Positions 3,391 to 58,755 of a DNA stretch of 64,000 nucleotides are shown here, piece after piece. A program made the position numbers and the translations under genes. How positions within the stretch are numbered: position 1 is the first letter of the stretch; each line of letters begins with the position of its first letter. Below the pieces are notes generated by a model. That model was given only the letters and a program-made list of their open reading frames with translations, was not told the origin of the DNA and made no database searches. This stretch comes from a virus (taxonomy: Duplodnaviria > Heunggongvirae > Uroviricota > Caudoviricetes): IMG/VR virus record IMGVR_UViG_3300005323_000037, positions 51,988 to 115,987 of that record; one strand, given 5' to 3'.

Positions 3391-3813
3391 TTATCCGAAT
3401 GTGGTCCGTGTTAGTGAGCCAGACCTGCCCACCATGGTCATTGAGATTTTAGCTGCATCCATCAACGTAAACGACATTTCATAGCTGCTCAATATCGTAC
3501 ACGCAGTATACATAACGCAGCCACTGCCTGAACCAGAAGGCCCAAGCGCAAAGCGCGTGCTGCCACCAAGAATGCCATACATTACTATATCAGTTTCATT
3601 CGCTCCGGTATCCATAAAGCCCGACATAGTAAGCTCGACATCCTTGATCGAATCAGCAACGCGCTGCTTGACTACATCACCGAAACCTGTAACCTCTGGC
3701 ACTTCGGCAGTGTAGCGCAATGTGATTTCGTTTGTTTTGCCGGAGATAGCGCGACAAGTGCCTGCACTATCATCGACACCTAACGATGCGTTCCTTGCTA
3801 CTAATTTAGCCAT
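3391..3813 (-). CDS. Major tail (tube) protein, short paralogue
   Basis: N-terminal 85 aa clearly paralogous to ORF 4132-4857 (MAKLVARN.../MAKIVARN..., shared LRxTAExPExT and SIKDVELT motifs). Position upstream of the chaperones. Confidence 0.55.
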   Translation of the reverse strand: MAKLVARNASLGVDDSAGTCRAISGKTNEITLRYTAEVPEVTGFGDVVKQRVADSIKDVELTMSGFMDTGANETDIVMYGILGGSTRFALGPSGSGSGCVMYTACTILSSYEMSFTLMDAAKISMTMVGRSGSLTRTTFG

Positions 3814-4131
3814 ATCTTATTACCTCAACCCTTTCTGGATGCCCACTGCCCGCCAGAACTATGGGCTACATACACTCGATCAACTACCTACTTGAGAAAA
3901 CTTATGGGTTAGAATAATTGCTATCTATAACGGATAAGTTTTCTGCTTACAAATAATAGCTGCTACATTTGCAATTTTCCATATAGCAGTATTTATTTGT
4001 CGATGTACTTGTCGCTAAACTCTACAAATAACCCTACTACATTTACTTTTTTCGATGTAATAGTATTTATTTGTAGTCGGGAAAACTATCCGTTATAGAG
4101 GCTTTATTTCTATACGGATAAGTTTCCTAAA
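3814..4131. repeat. Structured intergenic element: two ~60-bp tandem palindromic units flanked by inverted ACGGATAAGTTTYC half-sites
   Basis: Units at about 3951-4076 each contain CAAATAA...TTATTTG hairpins. Half-sites at 3926-3943 (forward), 4079-4097 (reverse) and 4111-4127 (forward). Confidence 0.5.
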
Positions 4132-4857
4132 TTAGCTCGCTGCTACCATAAATGTCGCGCATGGGCTGGTGCCAGCAAGCTGAATTGATACCCTGCGATA
4201 ACGCGATGCGCCAGTGATTGCACTCCATGATGCACTTGAGATTCCTACCGCGGCCACACTAGCCTTGTCTGTAATTACAAGCGCGGTGGTCCAAGTTGAA
4301 TCATCAGAACTGTTTTGAATACTAGCACTGAATTCTGGCGTCGTCCCAGTAAGCGTGTATAACCTAATGAATCCATACATCGAGCCAGCAGGACTAGCGC
4401 CATAATCAACTGATGCTAATGGGCTAGTGCCAGCACCGTTCATGGTTGTATATCCAAGCGAGCGCGTGTAATACAGATTACCAGTGCCAGCATATGTAGT
4501 GCTAAATGCCGCGGCTTCCGCTAACGGATAGCGCATTTCATAATTGGACAAGATGCCAACAAATTCCTTACCAACCTTAGATGCGCCATACCCTTCAGGA
4601 TATTGACCAACTATTCCCGATGCGCCAAGCATAGAATTGTACAGTTCATCGACTTGAGATGCCGCCACATCCTGAAAGCCATCAACTGTTAATTCCACAT
4701 CCTTGACACTATCAGCTAGCCTGCACTTGATCGAGTCTGTAAATGCGGTTGCCTCTGGCGCTTCAGCAGTTAGTCGCAAGGTAGTACTATTTGAACGCGT
4801 CGATAAATCTCTGCCACCTAGTGAGATACGCACATTACGTGCTACGATTTTCGCCAT
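4132..4857 (-). CDS. Major tail (tube) protein, long paralogue with ~100-aa Gly/Ser/Tyr/Thr-rich C-terminal extension
   Basis: Paralogue of 3391-3813. The extension resembles decorated or Ig-like long-form tail tube proteins. Confidence 0.55.
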   Translation of the reverse strand: MAKIVARNVRISLGGRDLSTRSNSTTLRLTAEAPEATAFTDSIKCRLADSVKDVELTVDGFQDVAASQVDELYNSMLGASGIVGQYPEGYGASKVGKEFVGILSNYEMRYPLAEAAAFSTTYAGTGNLYYTRSLGYTTMNGAGTSPLASVDYGASPAGSMYGFIRLYTLTGTTPEFSASIQNSSDDSTWTTALVITDKASVAAVGISSASWSAITGASRYRRVSIQLAGTSPCATFMVAAS

Positions 4858-5017
4858 TACTTACCTCCACATCAGACAACGCAATGAGACCAATGCTAAG
4901 AGCGGATTGAATGTGCTTCTTCGGCCAATCTACTAGCTCATCTAATGTGCCAGCATTGTAGATTGTATGTGTCCCATCTTTATTGTCGTGCCACACTGTT
5001 TGTACAAACTTGTACAT
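4835..5017 (-). CDS. Hypothetical small protein
   Basis: 60-aa ORF co-oriented and packed with its neighbours. Confidence 0.25.
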   Translation of the reverse strand: MYKFVQTVWHDNKDGTHTIYNAGTLDELVDWPKKHIQSALSIGLIALSDVEVSNGENRST

Positions 5018-5165
5018 ACTTTTCTCCTGCTAATTATTATACCATACTTAGACTAAAATGTCAATAGACGTTGCAATGACATTACATAATAAAACGCGTA
5101 TATTAGCACTCTCGTGTCCTATACGCGTTTGCTGAACTGATATTTCAGATGATTAATCTGATAGA

Positions 5166-5600
5166 TTAGATAACGTTCTCTACTTCAAGCGTATACATAA
5201 TTGGTATCCAAGTTGCTCCACCTGGGAATGTGATACCGGTTTGCGGATTGTGTTCAGCTTCCAATCTGATTACTTGATCGACAGTATTATTGATAGTTGG
5301 ATTAGCTTTGATTGCCGCGATTACCTTATCATTGATAGACCAGATAGTATTGAGCACAGTTTCTGGCACACCGGTATCTCGAACATATGTTTCAAGTCTA
5401 AAACGCCAATCATCAGATGGTTCGCCATCGCCAAATACAGTAAATGCGCCACTGTAGCCAGTGAATGAGACTTTCATTGCAACGTCATTGGAGGATTCCA
5501 TAATGGCATAGGAATTCTTCGATACATAGCTGCCGAATAATGTAGACGCGCTGAAGATGCTGACTAACTGATCTGCAATTGCCGAGCCGCTACTAGCCAT
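5166..5600 (-). CDS. Putative tail terminator / tail completion (neck) protein
   Basis: 144 aa, positioned immediately upstream of the major tail gene as in sipho-type modules. No diagnostic motif. Confidence 0.3.
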   Translation of the reverse strand: MASSGSAIADQLVSIFSASTLFGSYVSKNSYAIMESSNDVAMKVSFTGYSGAFTVFGDGEPSDDWRFRLETYVRDTGVPETVLNTIWSINDKVIAAIKANPTINNTVDQVIRLEAEHNPQTGITFPGGATWIPIMYTLEVENVI

Positions 5601-5605
5601 TATCG

Positions 5606-6214
5606 TTATCCTTTACTTATACTTACAAAGCGCCCGCCAGCGCCGCGCCATTTAGAACCACGCCCAGATGGAGCATATGTAAACTGTCCAGCTTTAGAAT
5701 AGAAGGCTGGATTCTCAAATGCGGCAACGTACTGTGCAGCCAATTGTCCTGCTGTACGCTCGGCTGCTACATATGCCTCATCTATAAATGGATTAGCTGC
5801 CGATCCTGGATGGCGCGCAGTGTATGGTTCGCCAACCCATTTGACAGGATGCTCTAGCCCAGGCCAGGATAATGCTCTAGCTGAGCCTTTACCAGTGATG
5901 GAACCTGGAAAGATCATATAGCCAGGCTTAGTCTGCCTAGTTACATAATCTAATTTCTCTGGCTGCGATGTCCATACTGAATATGTGCCCACTCCAGATT
6001 CAATGCTGAATGAATCCTTCAGATGCGAGTTACCATAACGCTTATCGCGCGCTTCGCCAACTGGACTATGAGTTACCGCATAATTGTAGAAACTCCTAGC
6101 TACCTCTAATGCTATAGCATTGAGTATTTTACCGCCAGTAGTGGGCAACGCTTTCATGATTGGATCAAACTTAGCCCTTAGATCGCTGATATCAGTTTCA
6201 AATGTTGGTCCCAT
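5606..6214 (-). CDS. Putative head-tail joining (neck) protein
   Basis: 202 aa, Gly/Pro/Ala-rich, positioned in the neck module. Confidence 0.3.
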   Translation of the reverse strand: MGPTFETDISDLRAKFDPIMKALPTTGGKILNAIALEVARSFYNYAVTHSPVGEARDKRYGNSHLKDSFSIESGVGTYSVWTSQPEKLDYVTRQTKPGYMIFPGSITGKGSARALSWPGLEHPVKWVGEPYTARHPGSAANPFIDEAYVAAERTAGQLAAQYVAAFENPAFYSKAGQFTYAPSGRGSKWRGAGGRFVSISKG

Positions 6215-18205: not shown

Positions 18206-19195
18206 TTAGGAGATGTGAATTACTTCACGAATTGAATGCTTGCCAGAAACAAGATTCTCAAATGTAGCAGGCACATCTGCAAGTTGACTGATACCAGTGA
18301 TTAGCTTGTCGTAAGAACATTTGCACATGTTATCAATAACATCAAGAAAGTTATGCCTAGAAGCATTGCGTGCACCAATCAGAGTGAGCTCCTTGCGAAC
18401 TACATCATTCATGTCTACTGTAATTGGACCGGAGCTATAGCCCACACTAGCAATGCAACCTAAACGCTGCACTTTACTCATAGCTGTATCATAGACTTCC
18501 TGCGAGCCAGCGGCATCTATAACTATGTCGTAGCTGATGTTGCTGAGGCTCTTATTGTAAACCGTTACATCAAATAGATGATGTGCTAGATCAGTCTTGT
18601 ACACATTGTGATCTAGCACAGTAGTAGGAATACGATACGTGGTCAGATAATCAATACAACCTAAGCCTACTGCGCCGCAACCGATAACTAATACATTAGG
18701 CGCATGAGTGGGCAGTAGTCGATAGGCATTGATAGCGGCGCTGGCAGTATGATAACCAATGGCCAGAGGCTCAACTAGGGCAGCGGTATAGTAGCTACCC
18801 ATAATACCTGTAACATCTATAAGAATATCTCTAGGCAGATTGACGTATTCAACCATCAAGCCGTCGCGCTGTACACCAAAGGTTTGATTGAACTTGCATG
18901 AATTGGTATGACCATTGCTGCATGAAAAACATGGTACAGCCGCCTTGCGATCTAGACAGTTGGTGTATGGATAGACTGTTACAATACTACCATCAGACAG
19001 CTCACCTACCATCTCGTGGCCAAGAATGACTGGATACTTTACATTGGGAGAGGAGCCTGAGTAGGCTGCTAGATCGCTGCCGCAAATGCCAACATAGAGT
19101 ACTTTTACACGCTCTTCGCTTGGCTTAGGCAGGGGCGGTTCGGGAATGTCGATGACTTGAATGCTATGTGGAGATTGTAGTGAGACTGCTTTCAT
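18206..19195 (-). CDS. Zn-dependent medium-chain dehydrogenase/reductase (alcohol, polyol or alditol-phosphate dehydrogenase family)
   Basis: Motifs VGICGSDL (compare GxCGSDxH) and GHEMVGE (compare GHExxG), plus a Rossmann GxGxxG (VIGCGAVGLG). Start moved to ATG 19195 with a GAGGT RBS. Confidence 0.6.
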   Translation of the reverse strand: MKAVSLQSPHSIQVIDIPEPPLPKPSEERVKVLYVGICGSDLAAYSGSSPNVKYPVILGHEMVGELSDGSIVTVYPYTNCLDRKAAVPCFSCSNGHTNSCKFNQTFGVQRDGLMVEYVNLPRDILIDVTGIMGSYYTAALVEPLAIGYHTASAAINAYRLLPTHAPNVLVIGCGAVGLGCIDYLTTYRIPTTVLDHNVYKTDLAHHLFDVTVYNKSLSNISYDIVIDAAGSQEVYDTAMSKVQRLGCIASVGYSSGPITVDMNDVVRKELTLIGARNASRHNFLDVIDNMCKCSYDKLITGISQLADVPATFENLVSGKHSIREVIHIS

Positions 19196-19197
19196 TG

Positions 19198-19719
19198 CTA
19201 AATTACCTCTTTGCAAGTACAATACGCGGCAGGATCGCGCTCGACAGCAATCTTGATACCGCCCGTATTGAAACTAGATATCGGCTGCGGCAAGCGACTT
19301 ACTCCGCCGCATTTATAGCATAGATGCTCTCTGTACGTCACTCTTCCTATATCTACCGTGCGCTGCAAACAGCTTGCATCAATGCCCCAACGATGTAGGT
19401 TGCTATTGTATCCTGCCTTGATAACGATATAGATTACATCACCGTATTCGTGAAAATAGTAACGAGATAGTTTGATATACTCTACTCTAGTATTAATACA
19501 GGCAGCGTAAGTATCATCTTTTGAAACATATCTACTAAGATTATTATCATAAACTGGAACAGCAACCGTATCACTGTAAAGAACTGCATAGGGAAGAGTT
19601 ATTTTCTTCTGATCGTATATAGATAGAAATTCTGCCCTACCTATCGCCTTGATATTGCCATCGCTGTAGCCGAGTACGACAAAAGGAATTCTAGGCAGGT
19701 CTAGTAATTTATCAGTCAT
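19198..19719 (-). CDS. Hypothetical protein (C-terminal CxxC...CxC)
   Basis: Follows the dehydrogenase gene. Start moved to MTDKLL. Confidence 0.3.
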   Translation of the reverse strand: MTDKLLDLPRIPFVVLGYSDGNIKAIGRAEFLSIYDQKKITLPYAVLYSDTVAVPVYDNNLSRYVSKDDTYAACINTRVEYIKLSRYYFHEYGDVIYIVIKAGYNSNLHRWGIDASCLQRTVDIGRVTYREHLCYKCGGVSRLPQPISSFNTGGIKIAVERDPAAYCTCKEVI

Positions 19720-21495: not shown

Positions 21496-21874
21496 TATCT
21501 AGCTCATCACACTTAACAGCCCATACCTTGGCGGTGCAGGTTTCATAACAAACTTTACATAAGAAATCTTCCTCCCAGCAACCAAATGAGGCTCCTATCT
21601 GGTCACTACTGCGTACCTCTCCGCATAGCGCACAAGTAAATGTAGCCTTGCCTGCCTCGGCGCACTTCTCGCATATATACTCTCTATTGCCATGTTCACC
21701 AAAAGAAAACTCGGACCTTCTAGCAATTTCCTTACCATAACCATTCTTTGTCATATAGTTTCCGCAAATTGGACACGTGTCGATTGCTATTAGTACTTTA
21801 GCAAAGTAGCCACTGTCGCTAGTAAAGAATTCCGTATCCCAATCACTAGCCTTGAGTTTGTCTACCATAATCAA
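21470..21874 (-). CDS. Zinc-ribbon protein (four CxxC pairs)
   Basis: CPICGN...CEKC...CALCGE...CKVC. Confidence 0.35.
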   Translation of the reverse strand: MIMVDKLKASDWDTEFFTSDSGYFAKVLIAIDTCPICGNYMTKNGYGKEIARRSEFSFGEHGNREYICEKCAEAGKATFTCALCGEVRSSDQIGASFGCWEEDFLCKVCYETCTAKVWAVKCDELDNEHRYDYE

Positions 21875-22355
21875 TCCCTACTCCAATCTCAACCATGCCG
21901 CCACCTGAATTCCATTTATTCCATTCCTTAGCGGCACCGTCAGCATTAATTCCGCTAAACCCTCTTGCTCCACATTTGCACGTAATATAGAAACCGCTTG
22001 TTAGCATGTGCTTGCATACAAGATTACTAGCCGTACCGCAAAACATACATGGAACTAATTCCATACTAGCAGCAAGAACAAGTTGTGTTTCGTACCAGCG
22101 TTGTTTGTGATTACATAAAAGTTCGGATGCATCACACGAAATAACACCATCTCCTACTAGATACTCCCAACCACCAATCACTTCTGTATTCTCTACCATA
22201 TCAGTAATCGGCAAAACGTGTCCAAAGTAACCGCGGAACCCAGTATCGGTTTCTACTATATCGCCGATGTTATATATTGGAGGTTGATGAATGTTGCAAC
22301 CGGGATGCCGTAATGTAACTGGACGGCCAGCTTTGTAGAATTGAAATTTCTCCAA
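21846..22355 (-). CDS. Hypothetical protein
   Basis: 169-aa ORF, TTG start. Confidence 0.3.
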   Translation of the reverse strand: MEKFQFYKAGRPVTLRHPGCNIHQPPIYNIGDIVETDTGFRGYFGHVLPITDMVENTEVIGGWEYLVGDGVISCDASELLCNHKQRWYETQLVLAASMELVPCMFCGTASNLVCKHMLTSGFYITCKCGARGFSGINADGAAKEWNKWNSGGGMVEIGVGIDYGRQTQG

Positions 22356-23669: not shown

Positions 23670-23714
23670 TCATTTTGACGTACTCTCACGACTGGAAGTC
23701 GTGAGATTCTGGGG

Positions 23715-24860
23715 TCAAACAGCAAACGCCGGACACTCCGGTCTTACTTCGCCTAGCCCAAGAGAAAACGCCCCTTCTCTACGAATGTTGATAGCAGCGT
23801 TTCGGTCGCGATCATGGATGGTGCCACATGTTGCGCAGGCCCAACGACGCTCGGATAGTTGCAAGCCCTGATACACGTTTCCGCACACCGAGCATGTCTT
23901 GCTTGACGGGTAGAATCTGTCAATCAAGCGAACTATCTTGCCCTTGCCGTTGGCAACATGTCTGAGGATGCCCATGAACTCCGAGCGGGCCAAATCGCCG
24001 ACTTTGCGGCCCCACAGCCGCTGCATGCCCTTCATGCTCAGGTCCTCAAAGTACAGGTAGTCATACTGATCGGTGAGTGTGTGCGCTAGCTTGAAGAAAA
24101 AGTCTCGGCGCTTGTTTACTATTCTCTGGTGAATCCGCTCGACGACCCGTTTGGCCTTCTGCCAACCGTGCGAGAACTTAACCTTGCGGGCAAGATTCTG
24201 TTGCGCAAGCCTGAGCGCAGACATCGCCTGTTGAAGGTACAATGGCGACTCAATCACCGATCCATCATCAATGGTTAGAAACGTCTTCAAACCAAAATCA
24301 AAGCCTGCGCTATTACCCGTCATGGCTCGATTGCCTTGGTTCTCCGGTGCTTCAACCACGAAATATAGCCAGAGCGCGCCCAGGTTGTCGCGCTTTACCG
24401 TCAACGTCTTCACTTCGGCCGGGATGTCCCGGCTCCTGCTGAACTTGTACACCCGTCCTTGAATCTTGACTCGATTGCCATCAAGCAACTTCCAACCAGC
24501 CTGTTTGAGCGTGAAGCTGCTGTACTTCTTGACTTTCCTGAAGCCTGGTGGTGCAGTCTTGACGCCTGCTTTCAGATTGCGAAAGAACAGTGTGTACGAC
24601 CGCTCGATCCGCTGTACGATGTCCTGAATCGCCTGGGAACCGACTAGGTTCCAGAATGCATAGCTGGGCCGCTGCTTGAGTTTGGCAATGTGCGCCATCA
24701 AAGCGTATTGGTTCAGGTGCTTACCAGTCAGGTGATAGTAGCGGCGATGGAGCGCAACGCTGTGGTTCCAGATGATGCCAGCCACGTCGATCTGCTGGTT
24801 CAGGAACCTATTCCGCTTCGCCCGGTACAGCTTGAACTTGTACGTCTTGATGCCGTTCAT
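23715..24860 (-). CDS. tnpB: TnpB (IS605 OrfB; RuvC-like RNA-guided nuclease family)
   Basis: C-terminal zinc finger CSVCG...CATCG and a RuvC-like split domain. Start assigned to MNGIKTY, whose ATG overlaps the tnpA stop as ATGA. The track's longer 5' extension is rejected. Confidence 0.8.
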   Translation of the reverse strand: MNGIKTYKFKLYRAKRNRFLNQQIDVAGIIWNHSVALHRRYYHLTGKHLNQYALMAHIAKLKQRPSYAFWNLVGSQAIQDIVQRIERSYTLFFRNLKAGVKTAPPGFRKVKKYSSFTLKQAGWKLLDGNRVKIQGRVYKFSRSRDIPAEVKTLTVKRDNLGALWLYFVVEAPENQGNRAMTGNSAGFDFGLKTFLTIDDGSVIESPLYLQQAMSALRLAQQNLARKVKFSHGWQKAKRVVERIHQRIVNKRRDFFFKLAHTLTDQYDYLYFEDLSMKGMQRLWGRKVGDLARSEFMGILRHVANGKGKIVRLIDRFYPSSKTCSVCGNVYQGLQLSERRWACATCGTIHDRDRNAAINIRREGAFSLGLGEVRPECPAFAV

Positions 24861-25258
24861 TGGCCCTTTTGTCCCTCGATGTAGTGGCGAACGGTGTCTT
24901 CTGAAATATGCCCGATCGACTCGCAATAGTACAAGCGCGTCCACAGCGACGGCAACCGGGTCTTGAGCTTGGGAAACTCCGCCCGCAGCTCATGCGATGC
25001 ATAGCCCTTCAACTGTTGTACCAAGTAGTGCGGCGCGTGCACAGGTGACGCCCTGAGAAAGAGATGCACGTGATCCGGCATGACTTCCAACGTCTCCAGT
25101 GTACACCCCAACTCCTGAGCCTTGGCTTGCAGCAACCCCAACAAGCGTTCGGCTACGGCTCCGACCAAGACCTTGCGGCGATACTTGGGGCACCAAATCA
25201 GATGGTAGCCGGTGTTGTAAACAGCCTTGTGGCTAGTAGTCCATCTTGCATTTGTCAT
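24857..25258 (-). CDS. tnpA: TnpA (IS200/IS605 Y1 HuH transposase)
   Basis: 133 aa with HVHLF HuH motif and a C-terminal tyrosine region. Own promoter TTGACA-17-TAGATT upstream. Confidence 0.8.
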   Translation of the reverse strand: MTNARWTTSHKAVYNTGYHLIWCPKYRRKVLVGAVAERLLGLLQAKAQELGCTLETLEVMPDHVHLFLRASPVHAPHYLVQQLKGYASHELRAEFPKLKTRLPSLWTRLYYCESIGHISEDTVRHYIEGQKGQ

Positions 25259-25411
25259 GCTACCAATCTACCACAACCATAGCTACTTGTCAAGTACCTA
25301 TCGTTGATCGTGCCAAGTCCCGCCCGTGGGCGGTCGCTATTCATCCCACGAGTGAACTCGGATGGGCTTTCTACCGATTTATCGTAAAACCAGTACAATC
25401 CAGCCCATTAT

Positions 25412-25960
25412 CTATTCCTTCTTTGTACAAACAATCACAAATGGCTCCGCCACTGTATTGTTATGATATTGCGCTGCTCTGAGCGCCATGGTAATCCTAT
25501 CAGCAGGAGCAATATTAGCTCTATCAGTTGTGTACAATGATCCTAACGCTACGTCGTCACCAGCGCCCACCGCAACATAATTACAGCATAGCTCACCTAC
25601 CTGATAGTCACTATCAATGAAGAATAGGTGGCCATGAAAGCCAACTAAGAATGTGCCGGCTGAGTCTCTGCCATTATCAGTATACTGATAGCCGCCATCC
25701 TTGAAACAGGTACGTACCGCATTGATAAAGTCAGTTACCATAAACTTATTGACATCCACTGATTCATCATATACAGGTGGCTTGAGCGCATAGCGTAATA
25801 GTTGTCCCATGCGATACGATCCGGTAACGCCCATGATATAATCTTCATTACGAAACACTTTAGCATCAGCACGAATCTGAAGCGTAGAGTAAGATGTGCC
25901 AGCGGAATCGCCGCCTAGCCAGACGTCATTGTTATCAACGATGCCTATGATGCAAGTCAT
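25412..25960 (-). CDS. Proteasome/HslV-like Ntn-hydrolase family protein
   Basis: N-terminus M-TCIIGIVDNNDVWLGGDSAG with Thr at position 2 (the nucleophile after Met removal), followed by a GxxGxxG-like segment. 182 aa. Confidence 0.45.
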   Translation of the reverse strand: MTCIIGIVDNNDVWLGGDSAGTSYSTLQIRADAKVFRNEDYIMGVTGSYRMGQLLRYALKPPVYDESVDVNKFMVTDFINAVRTCFKDGGYQYTDNGRDSAGTFLVGFHGHLFFIDSDYQVGELCCNYVAVGAGDDVALGSLYTTDRANIAPADRITMALRAAQYHNNTVAEPFVIVCTKKE

Positions 25961-31387: not shown

Positions 31388-31413
31388 GTATACCTCTGTC
31401 TAAATTGATTCGA

Positions 31414-31497
31414 TAGGGCAGCTAGGACTCGAACCTAGATAGGATTGCTCCTGGCAATTCTTAAGATTGCTGCGTCTACCAGTTTCGCCACTACCCC
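31414..31497 (-). tRNA. tRNA-Leu (anticodon UAA), class II with long variable arm
   Basis: Manual fold: acceptor GGGGTAG/CTGCCCT (two G-U pairs), D-arm GCGAAACTGGTAGACGC, anticodon stem GCAAT/ATTGC with loop CTTAAGA, variable stem AGGA/TCCT, T-arm CTAGG-TTCGAGT-CCTAG, discriminator A. Confidence 0.8.
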
Positions 31498-31538
31498 ATA
31501 TACTAGCCAACCTACCTTGGCGGGCTAGTATTACTAAT

Positions 31539-32450
31539 TTATTGCTGCGCCCCAGGGATGGGCACGTATGTATTAGCGCTGCTGTCTGTATTGCTACCTA
31601 AGAACAATGTAATATCTGATCCCTGCGGAATGAAGTAGAGCTTATCGCGCTCGCCAATTACACCAGACAATAGCTCAAGCCGACGCAGCTCGTAGGCTTC
31701 AGGACTAATAGTGTATACCTTTGCTTGCTCTTCTGCCACCGCGTTATTGCGGCGAGCAATCTCTAACGCTACTTTAGTCTGCGCCTCTTCTTGCTTAACT
31801 TGTTCGGCCAGTTGCGCGGTGCGCTGCGTGGCGATTTCAACGTCAATTTTTACTTGTGCCTTGTCTTTCAACTTCTGCGCATAGGCAGGATCTGGTGTAA
31901 TGTTATTGATACCTACGTCTAGTAACTCAATACCAAATTCGCTTAGCTCAGGAGCTAGTAAATCAAACAATTCCTTTTGCACCTGTGCTCGACCAACACT
32001 AACATTACCATCACCAATACCCAGCATTTGATCTAGTGTATACTTAGTAGTGATCGCTTTGGCAACACGCGGTACACGATTAGCAACCTGGGTTTCAAGA
32101 GCGGCATCGTCACGCGCTTCAGCATTATAGGTCTGCCAGAGGGTGCGCGCTGATTCATCATCACCTTTACGTCGATAAGTAACACCAACCTCAAAGCCTA
32201 GCGGCTGCTTATCATTAGTCCATAGATCGGGATCGCTCCACTTGAGCGTCTTAGCTGAAGCGTCCATAACGACTAGCTGCGAGAACCACCCCATATTAGT
32301 ATAGCGACCAAACGTAACGACTTGACTAATTGAAACGCCGTCTCGCATAATCAAGCCCACTTCATTAGATTCAACGCGAGCATTCCAGTAGCAACCAGAT
32401 AGCAAAGTGCTAGTAACTAGTAAGATAGCGATTGATAGTGCCTTCTTCAT
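31539..32450 (-). CDS. SPFH/band-7 (stomatin/flotillin-like) lipoprotein
   Basis: Signal peptide with lipobox LLSGC, SPFH-like core, then a long Ala/Glu/Gln/Lys-rich coiled-coil region as in flotillins. Confidence 0.55.
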   Translation of the reverse strand: MKKALSIAILLVTSTLLSGCYWNARVESNEVGLIMRDGVSISQVVTFGRYTNMGWFSQLVVMDASAKTLKWSDPDLWTNDKQPLGFEVGVTYRRKGDDESARTLWQTYNAEARDDAALETQVANRVPRVAKAITTKYTLDQMLGIGDGNVSVGRAQVQKELFDLLAPELSEFGIELLDVGINNITPDPAYAQKLKDKAQVKIDVEIATQRTAQLAEQVKQEEAQTKVALEIARRNNAVAEEQAKVYTISPEAYELRRLELLSGVIGERDKLYFIPQGSDITLFLGSNTDSSANTYVPIPGAQQ

Positions 32451-32459
32451 GCTTGCTCC

Positions 32460-32681
32460 CTATTCTAAATTAGATTTGCGTCGTGCAAAGTAAAATACTA
32501 AAGCGACAACTCCGATAACTAAGGCCACAATTTCAATTAAGTCATCTATGCCACTCCCTAACGGTAACAGAAATAGAATAATAGCACGTCCAAACGGGTG
32601 TGCTAGCATAAAAGCTAGCAGCAAACACGCAATGGCTACTAACAATAACTTTTTAGTATGGTGCATACTAGCGCTCCTCAC
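32460..32681 (-). CDS. NfeD-like small membrane protein (two TM), partner of the SPFH gene
   Basis: 73 aa with two hydrophobic helices, immediately upstream of the SPFH gene as in bacterial NfeD-SPFH operons. Confidence 0.3.
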   Translation of the reverse strand: MRSASMHHTKKLLLVAIACLLLAFMLAHPFGRAIILFLLPLGSGIDDLIEIVALVIGVVALVFYFARRKSNLE

Positions 32682-32684
32682 TAC

Positions 32685-33017
32685 TTACAATGCTTCCAGT
32701 ATAGCCCTTAGTGATTCTAGCTTCTTCGTCAAGTTAGCAATTCTAGCATCGCGCCATTCGATTTCGCGTTCCAATACTTCAATCTTAGCCCATGCTTCAT
32801 TACGCTCCTGCTCTATGACGCAATTTTTACTAAACCCAGTCTTTGCTAAGTTGCTTGGCTTAACCCACCACCAACTATCTAAATCATTATCCCATACAAC
32901 TTGGATGCAATAAGAATCTCCGTAATCAACTTTTGTCACATTACCAATCCAGCCAAGCCAGTCATGCCTAATTGCACCGATGTACTTCACGTGATCGCCT
33001 ACTTTGAAATCATCCAT
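32685..33017 (-). CDS. Small protein with SH3-like GDHV domain and C-terminal coiled coil
   Basis: Start moved to MDDFKVGDHV to remove overlap. Confidence 0.3.
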   Translation of the reverse strand: MDDFKVGDHVKYIGAIRHDWLGWIGNVTKVDYGDSYCIQVVWDNDLDSWWWVKPSNLAKTGFSKNCVIEQERNEAWAKIEVLEREIEWRDARIANLTKKLESLRAILEAL

Positions 33018-33018
33018 T

Positions 33019-33480
33019 TTATTCAAGCTTCTTGTGCATATTTTGGTACATGCTTGTGACATTTTTCCTAAGCTGATGCTCTTCAAGCGCATACATCAAT
33101 GCCATGCGCATACTGGTACCCCAGCAGCGCGTTATAGCAGAAGCGCCAGCATCCAGCACAACTCGATATACATGATATTTAGAAGACTCAACTCGATATG
33201 ACTCTACATGCAGCTTTAGGCCACTACTCTCACATTCATACAAAAGAGTTTCTAGCTCGTGCTTTTTATCATTAGGAGTGAAGAGTGAACGATTTCTCTC
33301 ATCTATGCTCATATAAGCAATCTTATCGGCGTGCTTAGGCACCCAATCAAAGTCACTTACTAGACGAGCAGCAAAGTCGGCATGGTAGATACGTTCATAA
33401 AGCGCGCTGTCCATATCTGCATTTATTAGACACGGAACTGACCTGCCAGTTCCATCTGGTTCAACTAGAATGTATTCCAA
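33019..33480 (-). CDS. Hypothetical protein
   Basis: 153-aa ORF. Confidence 0.3.
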   Translation of the reverse strand: MEYILVEPDGTGRSVPCLINADMDSALYERIYHADFAARLVSDFDWVPKHADKIAYMSIDERNRSLFTPNDKKHELETLLYECESSGLKLHVESYRVESSKYHVYRVVLDAGASAITRCWGTSMRMALMYALEEHQLRKNVTSMYQNMHKKLE

Positions 33481-33509
33481 TTTCGACCTCTCTATTGCTA
33501 GTAAAATAA

Positions 33510-33582
33510 TGAGACAGCCGAGATTTGAACTCGGATGAGCTTGCGCCCACTATAGCGCGTCTACCAGTTTCGCCACTGTCTC
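33510..33582 (-). tRNA. tRNA-like gene with non-canonical anticodon arm (4-bp GCGC stem with 8-nt loop, or 5-bp stem with 6-nt loop)
   Basis: Perfect 7-bp acceptor GAGACAG/CTGTCTC, D-arm identical to the tRNA-Leu D-arm, and T-arm CCGAG-TTCAAAT-CTCGG. The anticodon region GCGC-TATAGTGG-GCGC cannot form a 5-bp stem with a 7-nt loop. Confidence 0.5.
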
Positions 33583-33588
33583 AGCCAA

Positions 33589-33789
33589 TTAATCAAGCGC
33601 AGTCAACTCGTATATCACCGATACGGTATTAGGGCTAATGCGACTAACACGAACGACTTGCCATTCATTAGAAACTATAGTGGCACTAAGCCATCTATTA
33701 GCGGCATCTATAGCATCGACCTCACTGATAGGACCATCAGAGTACATACCAATTGTGCGTACAAAACGATCGTAGTCAATACTAATCAT
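33589..33789 (-). CDS. Hypothetical small protein
   Basis: 66-aa ORF between tRNA genes. Confidence 0.25.
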   Translation of the reverse strand: MISIDYDRFVRTIGMYSDGPISEVDAIDAANRWLSATIVSNEWQVVRVSRISPNTVSVIYELTALD

Positions 33790-33808
33790 TGCTTATTGTA
33801 ATCTCCTA

Positions 33809-33882
33809 TACTGAGGGCTGGACTCGAACCAGCAACCGCTGCGTTATAAGCACAGTGCTCTAACCATTGAGCTGCCTCAGCT
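33809..33882 (-). tRNA. tRNA with anticodon UAU (Ile-AUA type)
   Basis: Acceptor GCTGAGG/CCTCAGT, D-arm GCTC-AATGGTTA-GAGC, anticodon stem CTGTG/CGCAG with loop CTTATAA, T-arm GCTGG-TTCGAGT-CCAGC. Positions 8-9 are CA rather than UA. Confidence 0.65.
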
Positions 33883-33912
33883 GAACTATGCTAGACCAAC
33901 ACCACTGACGTA

Positions 33913-34095
33913 CTAGCTATCTTCATCATTGTGATATTCTTCACGCTCCCAATCGGGATCGTAATCCGTCTCAAAAACATAATCATCATCATGCCAGCTA
34001 CTCCAACAGTCATCATCATGCTCGTACTCGTCCGGTATACCGGCATCATCGGTCCAAGCTACCTCTTCGCTCCAATCGCGCATGCTTACCTCCAT
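33913..34095 (-). CDS. Small highly acidic protein (D/E/W-rich)
   Basis: Paralogue of 34113-34325 (shared DYDPDW...EEYH motif). Confidence 0.3.
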   Translation of the reverse strand: MEVSMRDWSEEVAWTDDAGIPDEYEHDDDCWSSWHDDDYVFETDYDPDWEREEYHNDEDS

Positions 34096-34112
34096 ACTAT
34101 ACTAGGCCCGCA

Positions 34113-34325
34113 CTAATCATTTTCACAGTTGCGCCACGTTTCGCATTCATCTTCATAGTCATGATATTCTTCCCATTCCCAATCGTCCCAATCAGGATCA
34201 TAATCTCCATCCTCATGCAATAGAGTGCCGTCATCTAGCAGTAACGTCACGCCGCTTCTGGTAAGTATACAACTAGCGGAACTAGCGTCAACAGTCATGC
34301 TCGCAACTCCTGTACGCACCTGCAA
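34113..34325 (-). CDS. Small highly acidic protein (paralogue)
   Basis: Shares DGDYDPDWDDWEWEEYHDYEDE with its neighbour. Confidence 0.3.
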   Translation of the reverse strand: MQVRTGVASMTVDASSASCILTRSGVTLLLDDGTLLHEDGDYDPDWDDWEWEEYHDYEDECETWRNCEND

Positions 34326-34489
34326 ATTACATCTGCTTCCACGCCAATAGCTGCAATGTACCCACTAGACATGTTATGATAAGCCTCTTCATTGGTACTA
34401 CCAATTCTAATCAGCGAGCGGATCAGTGCCGACATATCCTCTGCTGCCACATTGATACTGTCTAAATAGTCGAAAGTCTCTGCGTTCAT
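34295..34489 (-). CDS. Hypothetical small protein
   Basis: 64-aa ORF. Confidence 0.25.
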   Translation of the reverse strand: MNAETFDYLDSINVAAEDMSALIRSLIRIGSTNEEAYHNMSSGYIAAIGVEADVICRCVQELRA

Positions 34490-34499
34490 TATATCACTC

Positions 34500-35174
34500 C
34501 TACCAATAAGTTAATGGATTAGCATGGTCTGGATAATGTTCGTTCAGCCAGTTATCAGCCATCTTAGAAATATTATTACGGACAGCCGCGTATTTCCAAT
34601 AGGTAGCATCGTCAACTTTGCCATCTGGTCGGCAAATGTACTCTTCTGTCCGATAAATAATGGTATACTCATCAAAGCTGCTGCCGACGCCGGTATCGAA
34701 TACATAACCACGTTCAGGAGATTTATCATCATAATTGTCGCCATAGCCAGATTCTAATCGTAGTGTGGCAACGTACCTCTTCCTTAGTGACATATCTGCT
34801 CTACGATCATAGAAGGCCGCTTTATAAAACATATGGCCCCGAATACGCCCCTGCTCGTCAATCAAGTTAGAATGCATACTATGCTCAGTGGGCGCAAGCT
34901 CCCAGCCGGTAGGAAACTCTACTTCATAGAACAGATCATCATGTTCACTAATTATCTTGAAGCCAAGGGATTTCAAATCATCCCAGAGTGATCTGCTACT
35001 ATACATATCGCCTTGCTTGGGCAAAAGATGGCTCTTACATACTAGCTGTTGACCTCTAGCCTCTTGCGCCTCAATGCCACCAGGAGTCTCTGAGATAATA
35101 GCATTCTCAAGATCGCCACTCAGTAACGCTACTAATGTAGATGGTTTCATTATACTATACCCTACCAATCCCAA
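34500..35174 (-). CDS. Hypothetical protein
   Basis: 224-aa ORF. Confidence 0.3.
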   Translation of the reverse strand: MGLVGYSIMKPSTLVALLSGDLENAIISETPGGIEAQEARGQQLVCKSHLLPKQGDMYSSRSLWDDLKSLGFKIISEHDDLFYEVEFPTGWELAPTEHSMHSNLIDEQGRIRGHMFYKAAFYDRRADMSLRKRYVATLRLESGYGDNYDDKSPERGYVFDTGVGSSFDEYTIIYRTEEYICRPDGKVDDATYWKYAAVRNNISKMADNWLNEHYPDHANPLTYW

Positions 35175-35354
35175 TCGTAGTCATCATCGCAATCATAATC
35201 ATCAATTTCATCATTCTCGCTAGTGTGTTTAGCTTCCATTATCTCAATTACCGGCTCAATATACACATACTTTCTATACGCGTCTCCCAAGCTAGTAGCG
35301 TCTATATATATACCCACGTTGTCAATCCTTTCAATATATTGTTAGATAAACTAA

Positions 35355-35570
35355 TTAGATAGCCTCTCCAATAAACTTATCATTCTTCAGTTGACATAAC
35401 TTATCAATGATCTGGTCAATATCCTTGAACGAGAAATCAAAGCACATACCTGTCTCCTTATTGCTATCATCAGGATACCAGATTGTACACCAAACTGATC
35501 CGTCCTCACAAGTAAACTTTTCAGCATACACCGTGCCAGTGCGAATGCTTCTATCTACTTTCATCTTCAT
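35355..35570 (-). CDS. Hypothetical small protein
   Basis: Start moved to MKMKVD to reduce overlap with 35551-35754. Confidence 0.25.
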   Translation of the reverse strand: MKMKVDRSIRTGTVYAEKFTCEDGSVWCTIWYPDDSNKETGMCFDFSFKDIDQIIDKLCQLKNDKFIGEAI

Positions 35571-35754
35571 TGTCCGATCCTTTGTATGCTTTGGGAAATT
35601 CACAGTAAGCGACAATATTTTCTTGCCAAAACTCAGCGCTATCAAATGCGTTATGAAAAGCATTAGGATCGTAATGCCAATCGGACACGCCGCCCCACTT
35701 AGTAGTTACAATGTAACTCCCCTTCTTCTTGGGTAAGCCTAGCTTCCATCTCAT
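35551..35754 (-). CDS. Hypothetical small protein
   Basis: Start at MRWKLG. First gene downstream of the leftward early promoters. Confidence 0.25.
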   Translation of the reverse strand: MRWKLGLPKKKGSYIVTTKWGGVSDWHYDPNAFHNAFDSAEFWQENIVAYCEFPKAYKGSDNEDESR

Positions 35755-35983
35755 ACCTGCCACCTCTGTAAGATTGAGCAAAAGTGTTCAAAATCCCGTA
35801 CTTCTAACCCAGTATACCACAAGTGTAGCGGCTAAGTCAAGAGGTTGGAATAAGTCGCAGAAAACTGATAACAATTGAGCGAGGAGTGTACTAGGAGTGA
35901 GAATACAAGAAGGCCCAATGCCTAAACTGCACACTGGGCCTCTTGCAGAGGAGGAGTAGAACATGAAATTCACTACTAGCCTT

Positions 35984-36013
35984 AGTATAGCACATTTAGT
36001 ATAGACTTGTCAA
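35984..36013 (-). promoter_or_regulatory. Sigma70-type promoter (TTGACA-18-TATACT), leftward; first of three tandem leftward promoters
   Basis: The reverse complement reads GTACTTGACAagtctatactaaatgtgcTATACT. Further copies at 36111-36140 (TTGACA-18-TATACT) and 36223-36252 (TTGACA-18-TACAAT). Confidence 0.5.
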
Positions 36014-36040
36014 GTACCTGGCTAAAGAGATAGATGTCTT

Positions 36041-36260
36041 ATAAACAGAAAGACCCAACGAGTGCGTATCTCATTGAGTCTCTCTGCTTCCGGTGACAAG
36101 GCCTAGCTTCAGTATAGTACACTTGCCGCATGCTTGTCAAATACCAGTATAAACAGAAGAGCCCAGTAAGTGCATACTCTACTGAGCTCGTCTGCCATAC
36201 GGTACGGTATAGACCTAACATCATTGTAGCATATCTACTGCCTGCTTGTCAATAGGCAAT
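36041..36260. repeat. Two tandem ~108-bp imperfect direct repeats, each carrying a leftward sigma70-type promoter
   Basis: Units start ATAAACAGAA(A/G)AG(A/C)CC at 36041 and 36149 and end at GC(A/C)TGCTTGTCAA. Confidence 0.5.
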
Positions 36261-36288
36261 ATAGAACATCTCTATTGACATAGCGCAG

Positions 36289-36374
36289 TGGGCGGAGAAA
36301 GATTTGAACTTTCGCAGGCACGAAGCCAACTGGGTTACAGCCAGCCCCCTTTGACCAAACTTGGGTATCCGCCC
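36289..36374 (-). tRNA. tRNA-Tyr (anticodon GUA), class II
   Basis: Acceptor GGGCGGA/TCCGCCC, anticodon stem GCTGG/CCAGT with loop CTGTAAC, long variable arm, T-arm GAAAG-TTCAAAT-CTTTC, discriminator A. Confidence 0.8.
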
Positions 36375-37359: not shown

Positions 37360-38463
37360 TTACTGAAGCGGCAACTGCTGAAAACTTTGCTTAGTAACGG
37401 CCTCAATATACCAATTAGTATCGGAATCCTTATGCTTGGCGGAATAGTTAGCGGCAAACTGATCAGCTTGTGCTTGTGAAATAAATCCTTTATCAACTAG
37501 ACTCGGCAAAACTATCCGTATATAACCTGTCCAATTAGTAACGGATAAGTTTCCAAAAACACGCACCTCGCCAACCTTGAAATTGACCTTCGCGCCGATC
37601 AGTTTATTCTCGTAGATGAAATTCCTCTGATTGATTAGTCGTTGCACATCTTCTGGCGTAGTCGGGTCATACGTCATTGTCTCGGCTAGTGTTTCGAGTT
37701 CGAGTAGGCTAGCAAGTGGCTTATCGGCTTCTTCCACTAAATACGAATGCGTACCAACCGTATAAGTATCGGCAGCCTTAGCTTCTTCAACTTGCTTGCC
37801 GAGCTGTCCGGAAGCATTTCTGCCATCAGGAGAATTCTGCAATGCAAACCAATCCATAATTTCAACAAGGCCACAATAAACATGTTCGCCAATTAGCTCA
37901 TCTGTACGGATGAACAAATACTCACTGCCATCTCTTTGTGGTAGGCGCAAGTAATTCTCTTTGCCTCTAGCCATTTCTACTAGCTTCTCAGCTTCTTCCA
38001 GCCCGCTCGCATGCACGCATCTGATATTCTTATTAGCAATCGCGGCGGACTCTACTCGCTTCATCAGCTTGAATGCGCGCCGGCCACCGCAGCTAGCATT
38101 GGGACATTCCTTGAGTCCACATTCCCAGGGATAGGATATTAACATGCCAGTATTAGGATTACGTCTCTGATGCCAGGTGCCACATTTATCGAGAGCCGCT
38201 TGTCGCTCAGCGCCAGTCAGCCGCCTACAGGATCGCTTAGGCTTGCTGTCTTCTTCCTCTTCGAGATCCATCAAGTGTTCTAGTCCAGTTTGTAGCGCGC
38301 CAACCATCAGCTTACGATAAGGAGTCTGCACAGGAGCACAATCATTATAACCTTGAGCAAACAGTTTATCATATTCGTCATTGCCGCATTCATCATAGTC
38401 TTCATCAAATAAATGACTTAAATCCCAAGCTGGACCAACGTTGAGTCTCTTTTGTATATCCAT
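37360..38463 (-). CDS. Hypothetical 367-aa protein with Cys-rich zinc-finger-like segment; candidate replication initiator
   Basis: Sits in the control region directly downstream of a consensus promoter and iterons. Cys cluster CGTWHQ...CGLKECPNASCGG. Contains the operator-like inverted repeat at 37508-37554. Confidence 0.3.
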   Translation of the reverse strand: MDIQKRLNVGPAWDLSHLFDEDYDECGNDEYDKLFAQGYNDCAPVQTPYRKLMVGALQTGLEHLMDLEEEEDSKPKRSCRRLTGAERQAALDKCGTWHQRRNPNTGMLISYPWECGLKECPNASCGGRRAFKLMKRVESAAIANKNIRCVHASGLEEAEKLVEMARGKENYLRLPQRDGSEYLFIRTDELIGEHVYCGLVEIMDWFALQNSPDGRNASGQLGKQVEEAKAADTYTVGTHSYLVEEADKPLASLLELETLAETMTYDPTTPEDVQRLINQRNFIYENKLIGAKVNFKVGEVRVFGNLSVTNWTGYIRIVLPSLVDKGFISQAQADQFAANYSAKHKDSDTNWYIEAVTKQSFQQLPLQ

Positions 38464-38592
38464 ATTTTATTTACCTCTGCTTATATGATTATTGTTGCTA
38501 TTACTATTATTGCTTGATTCTACCATGCATTTATCCTATCTGTCAAATACGACAATAAATATAATTACTAATCAACAGATCGCTATGCAGTT

Positions 38593-38621
38593 ATTATAGC
38601 ATAAGATTAGATATTTGTCAA
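38593..38621 (-). promoter_or_regulatory. Consensus sigma70-type promoter (TTGACA-17-TATAAT) driving ORF 37360-38463
   Basis: The reverse complement reads TTGACAaatatctaatcttatgcTATAAT. Confidence 0.55.
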
Positions 38622-38650
38622 TATCTAGTATCACTTACTACTGAAGATGG

Positions 38651-38760
38651 GTACTAAAGTACTTACAGCAAGTACTAAAGTACCGAGATGCAAGTACTAA
38701 AGTACCCTATTATTATGATAAATATTATAATAATCATAACAATTATAGTAATCATAATAA
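38651..38760. repeat. Three helically phased iterons GTACTAAAGTAC (period 21-22 bp) followed by a ~55-bp AT-rich element
   Basis: Copies at 38651, 38672 and 38694. AT-rich run aatattataataatcataacaattatagtaatcataataattatcac. Confidence 0.5.
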
Positions 38761-39786
38761 TTATCACAGTGCGGGCCAGCGGTAAGCATGGACAATCATT
38801 GGATTAATACAATCATTCAATCATTGGATGATTCATTAGTCTACTACAATAATTAGTAAGAAGTCAGCAGGTAAGCGATTTTTTATTCTACAATTTTGCA
38901 GAATTCAATTCGATGACCGCAGGCGGGTATTTATAAATGTATTGCTAGTGTAGTCTGTATGCTTAGATAGCAGATAAATCGACGTGTATGCTGTCAAGCG
39001 CATCAGTTGAGTGGGTACAAATAGTAGTGTGACATGTATGCATCAGTAGTAAATGAGTTAGTATAGCAGTGGATAAAATGATTAGGCAAGCATATAACAG
39101 GACAAATGAGCAAGAGTGTAGTAGAAGATAGAATAAGATAGTAATAGTAGCAGAGTAAAGAGTGAGCAATCAAAGAGAAGGTAAGCATGGCGGGGTAATA
39201 GAGTTAGTAAGAAGTGGGGTGGGAGAGAAAATTTGCATGCTATGCTCAGTAGGGTACCCCCTTGCAACTTTTCTTGTCTGCATAATATTTTCTTGTCAAT
39301 TCCATTCTCATTGTCAATCCATTATGCATTTGGCATACTAGCTCGACTTGCCGGCTTCGATCTCAGTTGTCAGATTGCACTGTCTATAGAAGCTGTAAGC
39401 TGCTAGTAGTCACTGCCGGCAATTGTTGCAAGATCATGCTCGAACCGATATATGAGCCTCGATGCTGGTGTAGGCCGGTATGACCCTGATAGAATGAGCA
39501 TAGAATGAGCATGGCATAGCAGAGTAGATCGGGGGTAGGATAGCAGCATGCAGGGCAAATGTGCAAGCCGGCAGGGTAGGCTGCAAGATTGAGCTGCATA
39601 AGCACACAAAAAGTTGCAGCCTATCAGTGATCTTGCCAACTCTTGTTGCTTCCATACTTGCACTGCAATTGTCATCGACAAGTATGCTAGTAATCCAGTC
39701 TGATATATCAGATTGTAGCAGTCCATATAATGACCGGTTCAGTCCAAAGCTGCCCTACCAGTTTTGACATTATGTAAAGTGAATGC

Positions 39787-39815
39787 TTGACTCCTCGTGC
39801 TGGAGGTGATAGTAT
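39787..39815 (+). promoter_or_regulatory. Sigma70-type promoter (TTGACT-17-TAGTAT), rightward, start of the plus-strand arm
   Basis: ttgactcctcgtgctggaggtgatagtat, about 110 nt upstream of ORF 39923. Confidence 0.5.
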
Positions 39816-39922
39816 GGAGTCACGGCAACGCACCGGCGTAGTCGAACACATGTTCGGATTAGGGACATTGTGCAATCCTTCACAATCGGATAATCCAACA
39901 AGGGGAAGGGAAGGGGATCATT

Positions 39923-58750: not shown

Positions 58751-58755
58751 CTACC

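Follow-up and report, generated by a model that had tools for sequence, protein, structure and literature searches.

An interrupted palindrome inside an orphan phage gene recurs between two tail-tube genes

Three interrupted palindromes at two loci

The window analyzed here is a stretch of 64,000 nucleotides (nt) from virus record IMGVR_UViG_3300005323_000037, part of a novel siphovirus known solely from metagenomes, whose major head protein reaches a best identity of no more than 32% to any protein in 50,697 phage records. A leftward (minus-strand) gene array runs from ~39.7 kb to the left window edge and includes the genes for a prohead protease, the major head protein, two major-tail-protein paralogues and the tape-measure protein. 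Our subject is an interrupted palindrome found at two places in this array, between the two tail genes and inside an open reading frame (ORF) that we call X. The tail genes encode a long (241 residues; 4132..4857, minus strand) and a short (140 residues; 3391..3813, minus strand) form of the major tail (tube) protein; as already stated in a preliminary description of this DNA, they are paralogues, both with PHROG matches and sharing 43% identity over 129 residues. They lie 318 nt apart, and the whole spacer between them (3814..4131, minus strand) is specific to this lineage, as judged by comparisons with strains and relatives. ORF X (37360..38463, minus strand) encodes a protein of 367 residues, in which four invariant cysteines in a zinc-ribbon-like arrangement are followed by an α/β core, and which is the candidate cognate factor of the palindromes.

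Three complete interrupted palindromes occur in the window, together with zero isolated half-sites. The first, A1 (3895..3944, minus strand), reads AGAAAACTTATCCGTTA-N16-TAACCCATAAGTTTTCT on its sense (minus) strand, contains two C.C mismatches and is scored by a covariance model at 52 bits (E = 2e-10). The second, A2 (4080..4127, minus strand; 47.6 bits), begins 5 nt past the stop codon of the long tail-tube gene and is composed of the half-sites GGAAAACTATCCGTTATA (4080-4097) and TATACGGATAAGTTTCC (4111-4127), its sense strand reading GGAAACTTATCCGT..ACGGATAGTTTTCC. The third, A3 (37506..37554, minus strand; 58 bits), lies within ORF X, in codons ~304-319 (GNLSVTNWTGYIRIVLP) and ~150 nt short of the end of the gene, with half-sites at 37508-37524 and 37539-37554. 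The half-sites listed in the preliminary description, that is, both of A2, both of A3 and 3926-3943 of A1, all exist as quoted, and its spacings of 13 and 14 nt hold with the arm boundaries it used. It had, however, taken 3926-3943 (TATAACGGATAAGTTTTC) for a lone half-site, while this sequence has a partner at 3895-3911 (AGAAAACTTATGGGTTA; 15/17 complementary), hence three full inverted repeats and no orphans.

The 12-mer ACGGATAAGTTT has three exact matches and one match with a single mismatch in the window, against 0.16 expected at up to one mismatch, and the full inverted-repeat pattern has two matches against 0.00 expected (100 shuffles). When the window was searched with the covariance model, filters off, no copies beyond A1-A3 were found. 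The arms are 14-19 base pairs (bp) long, their centers are ~32-34 bp apart, and the span is 48-50 nt, in the non-coding copies too. Most copies have their outer part, GRAAA(A)C...GTTTTYC, in common, and the inner part covaries. The sequences of A2 and A3 are common over 12 and 14 nt of their arms, the same imperfection included, with unrelated loops, which argues that selection acts on arm sequence and not on pairing alone. Such selection at both loci calls in turn for a common sequence-specific reader, a generic hairpin being insufficient. A trans factor that would read the A-type palindromes sequence-specifically, as the preliminary description had proposed, is therefore the best reading of identical arms around unrelated loops, at two loci that are unchanged or nearly so in a strain ~88-90% identical. 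As for the form that is read, hairpin stability shows no consistent difference between the sense and antisense strands, and this lack of strand bias, together with the fixed 48-50-nt span, fits recognition of duplex DNA. A resemblance of TTATCCGT to TTATCCACA had raised the idea of a DnaA box, which is ruled out since the arms of the homologues are without the motif.

Conservation of the coding copy and make-up of the tail spacer

DNA encoding X was recovered for six further lineages (L008, L019/L028-30, L026, L032, L033 and L034), at 31-39% amino-acid identity and on contigs that are all no longer than 7.4 kb. For all seven homologues examined, the gene's strongest inverted repeat maps to the codons that hold A3 or right beside them; the one in L034 is weak and shifted slightly downstream. 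The palindrome is GAAAACTCTGCCTA-N20-TAGCCAGAGTTTTC in L008, GAAAAACTCTCCCTAATA-N14-TATTAGCGAGAGTTTTTC in L026 and a perfect 16-bp pair in L033; its outer GAAAAC/GTTTTC is kept in most X lineages, and the inner arm sequence varies between them. When 11 copies are aligned, 88% of the stem cells are paired, versus 30-54% with the partners slid, and half of the stem pairs (8/16) have changed on both sides. The resulting covariation score, 0.356 versus 0.150 ± 0.025, was reached by 0/500 shuffles.

Constraint is also visible at the level of codons. Synonymous recoding reaches the observed folding energy in 0.3-6.5% of trials (p = 0.003-0.065) in six of the seven lineages. Identical residues within the hairpin are written with the same codon in 13/13 cases between L008 and L019, in 12/13 between L026 and L033, and in 8/8 and 7/7 in other comparisons, versus 31-48% elsewhere in gene X (48% for the first of these pairs and 31% for the second). 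The peptide of the 3' arm in the window (YIRIVLP) departs from the SxSF of the closest homologues, and the 3' arm therefore stays complementary to the changed 5' arm. In a strain variant whose gene X has 89.6% nucleotide identity (115 differences), zero differences fall in the 86 nt around A3. The element is thus under selection at the nucleotide level, and the codon constraint of a conserved peptide, the explanation of the coding copy that the preliminary description had named as fatal to its reading, does not by itself account for A3 given the recoding, the frozen codons and the covariation.

Hairpin relics are found downstream of A3, in the C-terminal extension of X (37379..37425, minus strand), as degenerate partial copies. 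The fragment at 37411-37425 (TCCGATACTAATTGG) matches the A3 region 37531-37545 at 14/15 positions, and that at 37379-37396 (TACTAAGCAAAGTTTTCA) matches the 3' arm of L008 at 15/18 and encodes ..TKQSF.., a peptide close to SQSF in the nearest homologues. Between strains, both fragments vary more than A3 does, and the C-terminal extension is itself lineage-specific. Repeats are also seen after the X gene of two homologues: an extra half-site resembling the 3' arm (TTACCAGAGTTT) directly follows the X stop codon in L019 (1319-1332), and three tandem CCAATTTAGG units lie between the X stop codon and a consensus promoter in L008 (1202-1235).

Besides A1 and A2, the tail spacer holds two AT-rich hairpins or palindromes, B1 (3949..4000, minus strand) and its direct repeat B2 (4022..4076, minus strand), which are 80% identical over a 41-nt core and have no other occurrence in the window. 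The preliminary description had recognized them as internally palindromic tandem units, and both the repeat and the hairpins stand, while the unit size of ~60 bp does not, the period being 74 nt. The guanine-plus-cytosine (GC) content of the B core, 30%, is among the lowest in the window. Together the four elements form a composite palindrome of 233 nt (3895..4127, without assigned strand) in which A1-B1 faces B2-A2: the left half and the reverse complement of the right half are identical at 82/122 positions, with a score of 31 versus -8 ± 5 for shuffles. Since the similarity between A1-B1 and reverse-complemented B2-A2 extends into the loops of A1 and A2, the spacer arose by inverted duplication of an A-B unit. 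RNA of the minus strand across the spacer (3814-4131), which the preliminary description had suggested folding, folds far better than shuffles do (z = -5.7).

A gap of only 9-18 nt separates the two tube genes in four independent relatives (L001, L002, L036-38 and L039-40), whose long tube proteins share 40-54% identity with that of the window. The 318-nt spacer is therefore a lineage-specific acquisition and its copies are derived, and in this sense the insertion polymorphism anticipated at the tail intergenic region does hold. On these comparisons A3 is the ancestral copy, from which A1 and A2 are deduced to derive, so the two loci, earlier described as unrelated, are linked by descent. Once acquired, the spacer has been conserved: in the strain variants L017 and L018 (~88% identical overall) its identity is 97.2%, versus 84-94% for the surrounding genes, and the short tube gene shows 94.1% nucleotide identity between strains though its protein is unchanged. 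Two of the nine strain substitutions in the spacer touch stems, one at the inner edge of A2 and the other at the outermost base of A1, which it converts to the GGAAA form of A2 and A3. The part of the spacer beyond the composite palindrome (3814-3894) carries a single substitution in its 81 nt between strains and contains a GC-richer hairpin (~3826-3863, minus strand; GCCCAU..CUGGCG..CAUCCAG..AAGGGU), whose end lies ~10 nt before the ribosome-binding site (GAGG) of the short tube gene.

Relatives of the element were sought more widely. The covariance model detected no copies in the relatives' tail regions, and the spacer with its flanks had no match by DNA similarity in the 50,697 phage records. 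Pattern scans of IMG/VR gave 0 matches for the palindrome of this phage, one of the patterns demanding an extra base that made it unable to match A2 or A3, and 0 matches for the palindrome of the homologues. Rfam 15 returned no match at the gathering threshold; for the spacer and the homologues' loci, relaxing the cutoff to E <= 1 gave none either. A scan of 185,579 genomes yielded five perfect palindromes in unrelated taxa (Bacteroidales, Lachnospiraceae, Undibacterium), which we judged to be chance matches, the rough chance expectation being ~1.

Protein X and the reading of the element

The fold predicted for X is confident and without match to a known fold, and the stretch encoded by A3 is well folded (predicted local distance difference test ~97). 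Neither an acidic nor a histidine residue is invariant in the 42 aligned homologues or in the closest ones, the latter having several invariant basic (Arg/Lys) residues and zero acidic ones. With its Cys4 motif and invariant Arg/Lys without invariant acidic residues, X looks like a nucleic-acid binder by sequence. There was no match to the 42 family members in Pfam, PHROGs or NCBIfam, to an X profile among PDB sequences, or to X in tblastn searches of phage and plasmid collections, and an IMG/VR peptide-pattern scan for relatives found none. The top Foldseek match, RepB', is non-significant (E = 0.22, template modeling score 0.12). In the window, X is the first gene past two consensus promoters and adjoins both a GC-skew switch and the most AT-rich DNA; the change of sign of the skew, at ~38 kb, coincides with the switch in gene orientation.

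Our preferred explanation, to which we assign a probability of about 0.4, is that A1-A3 all represent the same cis-acting recognition element, whose ancestral home is the 3' part of gene X. It would be read sequence-specifically by a nucleic-acid-binding factor of the phage, the zinc-ribbon protein X being the most probable one. A site inside gene X would keep protein and site genetically linked. In this lineage, the A-B unit would have been copied and inverted-duplicated between the tail-tube genes, creating a second cluster in which two sites bracket an AT-rich core, and the closest working analogy would be an initiator/origin pair with a satellite site. X is the favored reader because the site always travels inside its gene, because the inner arms change between X lineages with the outer GAAAAC/GTTTTC mostly kept, and because of its resemblance to nucleic-acid binders. 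We infer recognition in the form of DNA, with an effect on replication (initiation or fork arrest) rather than a regulatory one. Repeats that lie inside the protein's own gene and co-vary with it are what an initiator/origin pair would present, a likeness in form, with binding by X putative.

Several observations weigh against this explanation. Neither by homology nor by fold does X resemble any initiator, and among the ~50 window ORFs tested none was recognized as coding for a helicase, primase or polymerase; X thus has neither the homology to a known initiator nor the helicase, loader or primase neighbor expected of one. In compact relatives it lies directly upstream of an XkdF-type prohead protease, a placement more suggestive of the start of a structural operon than of a replication module. 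The flanks of A3 have 41-43% GC, with no adjoining AT-rich stretch. Contiguous complementarity over 14-19 bp exceeds the usual need of a protein half-site, which suggests that base pairing (hairpin or cruciform) matters, and with either strain substitution in the spacer stems the sense strand still pairs as G.U, as would suit an RNA hairpin equally well.

Known phage origins offer the nearest parallels, that of SPP1 above all. Each lambda ori repeat has internal dyad symmetry. As for lambda O and its origin, the cis site here is within the coding sequence of the (presumed) binding protein; unlike lambda, with its four tandem 19-bp iterons and AT-rich segment, there is a single 48-50-bp palindrome in a well-folded coding sequence. 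The lambda origin lies inside gene O (PMC4488673). In Bacillus phage SPP1, gene 38 contains oriL, and the late genes are interrupted by a long intergenic segment with oriR; each origin has an AT-rich unwinding element and is bound by gp38, and oriR is thought to arrest forks and to trigger the switch to concatemer synthesis (PMC6316719). The arrangement here is like that of SPP1 in having one site cluster in the gene of the presumed binding protein and a second, with the same recognition sequence, in an unusually long non-coding segment that interrupts the order of virion genes, with an AT-rich region beside the repeats. It differs in that the SPP1 boxes are direct repeats, as opposed to 48-bp interrupted palindromes, and that A3 has no adjoining AT-rich element. 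Moreover, gp38 is a known origin binder encoded beside a helicase loader and a helicase, while X has no similarity to gp38 and no replication genes were seen nearby.

Plasmid origins provide another comparison. RSF1010 oriV has two related hairpin-forming inverted repeats, ssiA and ssiB, dyad-arranged round the origin and read by the RepB' primase; the link to X comes solely from the non-significant Foldseek match, and X has no conserved acidic catalytic residues.

The main competitor of recognition by X is an RNA-level element, with sense-transcript hairpins acting as processing, stability or antitermination signals, an account that we consider unlikely. In the tail operon, the four-hairpin block would set the long/short tube ratio via 3'-end protection or cleavage of the RNase III type, the X mRNA would be controlled by the hairpin within its gene, and a shared RNA-binding factor (which could be X) or the host RNA polymerase or a host nuclease would account for the conservation of sequence. 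Much is compatible with this: all three copies are on the transcribed strand of one long leftward array, A2 starts just past the stop codon of a gene with its own perfect promoter, the spacer RNA folds strongly, the strain substitutions in stems preserve pairing as G.U, and the arms offer 14-19 contiguous, covarying base pairs, a stem length compatible with the ~20 bp of double-stranded RNA of the RNase III reading. The hairpin sequence is moreover kept across X proteins just 32% identical, which suits a conserved host partner. Phages do use such signals, T7-type RNase III hairpins and the HK022 put RNAs being related hairpins of ~20 bp with internal mismatches, between or within transcript units. 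Those, however, are untranslated, while the ancestral copy here is translated, so that ribosomes would unwind it, and neither strand has a consistent advantage in stability. Nor is there an Rfam match, and structure alone leaves the identical arms with diverged loops at two loci unaccounted for. The U-tract of an intrinsic terminator is missing as well; a terminator is ruled out, the spacer scan having found none, and the spacer stems are AT-rich and followed by CGACUAC.. or CAAGUAG...

The other explanations fare worse. A selfish palindromic element resembling a miniature inverted-repeat transposable element (MITE), spreading in the phage genome and leaving the spacer as an insertion without phage function, is improbable. 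It would accommodate the four spacer-less relatives, the AT-rich composite palindrome with its terminal inverted arms, the hairpin relics in X and the presence of a Y1 transposase in the genome. There are, however, three copies per 64 kb and no more by covariance model, no matching family in the 185,579 genomes (chance-level matches aside) or in IMG/VR, and no target-site duplication seen on inspection of the spacer flanks. The conserved position and covariation of the coding copy are inexplicable by insertion, and the spacer is conserved above its neighboring genes. With three copies only, one of them intragenic and ancestral, and no target duplication, a family of MITEs or of enterobacterial repetitive extragenic palindromic sequences and bacterial interspersed mosaic elements (REP/BIME) is ruled out. 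REP/BIME are clusters of imperfect palindromes in alternating orientation that follow stop codons in operons and can stabilize upstream mRNA, and the spacer is indeed an alternating palindrome cluster past a stop codon within an operon. REPs, on the other hand, number in the hundreds, occur exclusively outside genes and go together with RAYT transposases, and no host family was found for the present copies. The ends of IS200/IS605 elements (PATE-like) are likewise ruled out, the end hairpins of the resident insertion sequence being GC-rich and unrelated.

A classical operator, whereby a small dimeric repressor or autoregulator bound to half-sites governs initiation at the tail genes and within X, or stops elongation there, is less probable still, in spite of the dyad symmetry, the half-sites conserved at two loci and the placement of A1 81 nt ahead of the short tube gene. 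None of the copies is overlapped by a credible promoter, arms of 14-19 bp with centers ~32-34 bp apart are unlike helix-turn-helix (HTH) operators, and a separate, typical set of three 12-bp repeats lies beside the early promoters. In its strict form of a repressor operator at a promoter, the operator-like character claimed earlier is ruled out, a dyad of no more than ~20 bp being expected as opposed to elements of 48-50 bp, none of them at a strong promoter. Similarly low is the probability of a recombination, packaging or nicking site, be it a crossover site, a pac-like signal in the first gene of the structural operon or a nick site. Small-terminase/pac pairs, too, typically have the site within the gene of the protein, and X directly precedes the prohead protease in compact relatives. 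X is, however, unlike any terminase, recombinase or nuclease, it lacks the invariant acidic and histidine residues, independent metagenome contigs are collinear through both loci without rearrangements or ends there, and a second pac-like site within the tail genes would harm the phage. There is also no sign of a homing or recombination enzyme, which, together with the missing target-site duplication and further copies, leaves the earlier suggestion of a recombination or homing site unsupported. That the palindrome is a product of chance or a by-product of a conserved peptide is extremely improbable, and refuted as far as sequence analysis can go. Part of the 5' arm does encode a fairly conserved peptide, G-K/N-L-x-x-T-D/N-W, and synonymously recoded versions still fold at ~-9 to -13 kcal/mol, but the chance expectation, the recoding test, the frozen synonymous sites and the covariation are all contrary, and two more copies are in non-coding DNA.

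If X reads its own embedded palindrome, as in our preferred explanation, this would open a way into an orphan family of phage proteins whose predicted fold is confident and unmatched, and would add an example to a principle, the site inside the binder's gene, known mainly from a few model phages. The case also shows how a gene-embedded site can be exported to a structural operon, where the outcome may be a second origin, a barrier to forks or a means of controlling the tube-protein ratio. For detecting this phage group the palindrome serves better than the X protein does and, with its synonymous sites frozen, it offers a textbook case of a gene that carries an overlapping nucleic-acid code. 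A broader proposition is possible yet doubtful: X and its palindrome may form a new widespread family (155 metagenome cluster representatives) of nucleic-acid-binding proteins that carry their own site, with site nucleotides more conserved than the protein, and an unrecognized kind of replication-origin or genome-organizing module that seeds satellite sites such as the tail spacer.

Control sequences and neighboring genes

Consensus sigma-70 promoters are found at 5064->5036, ahead of the long tube gene, and at 38621->38593, 38546->38517 and 36666->36638, with none at A1, A2 or A3; the best promoter matches inside the spacer, at 9/12, fall within B1. These promoters are perfect or near-perfect (TTGACA-17-TGnTATAAT) and on the minus strand, even ahead of the major tail gene, which suggests from sequence that host RNA polymerase may transcribe the virion genes from several strong internal promoters. 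Directly upstream of the gene X promoters, in 38649-38765, the 12-bp sequence GTACTAAAGTAC occurs as three exact copies (38651-38705), at 38651, 38672 and 38694, with a period of 21-22 bp, against 0.19 expected at up to one mismatch; they are followed by a 66-nt stretch of 15% GC. The repeats look like the operator or iteron set of a divergent control region. Among the neighboring ORFs tested, none matched an HTH family, many small ORFs being outside that set. Between the divergent gene arrays, ~1.4 kb (38464-39900) is without convincing genes, and long non-coding regions also lie upstream of X in homologues (~900 nt in L032 and ~1340 nt in L034).

The distant relative L001 has three tandem tube paralogues (4012-5639; 250, 142 and 141 residues), each beginning with MAKIVARN or MSKIVARN, and the copy number of the short form therefore varies within the phage group. 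The window also contains a complete IS200/IS605-type element within the phage (23650-25380, minus strand). Its TnpA Y1 transposase (24857-25258; Pfam Y1_Tnp, E = 1e-35) overlaps TnpB (23715-24944), which has OrfB_IS605 and Cas12f1-like TNB domains, and its GC-rich end hairpins are near 23680-23710 and 25320-25370.

Accessory genes, located in the stretch from X to the protease as well as on the right arm, encode a zinc alcohol-dehydrogenase-like protein (18206-19222), a Lar-like restriction-alleviation protein (21846-22355), an HslV-like peptidase (25412-25960) and, side by side, an RNA ligase and a radical-SAM protein of 521 residues (57848-60321). As X directly abuts the XkdF-type protease in compact relatives, ~20 kb of this region is probably acquired cargo. 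Transfer RNA genes for Leu(TAA), Ile(TAT) and Tyr(GTA) are located in 31412-36374, where ARAGORN also makes an aberrant call with a two-base anticodon (33509-33583).

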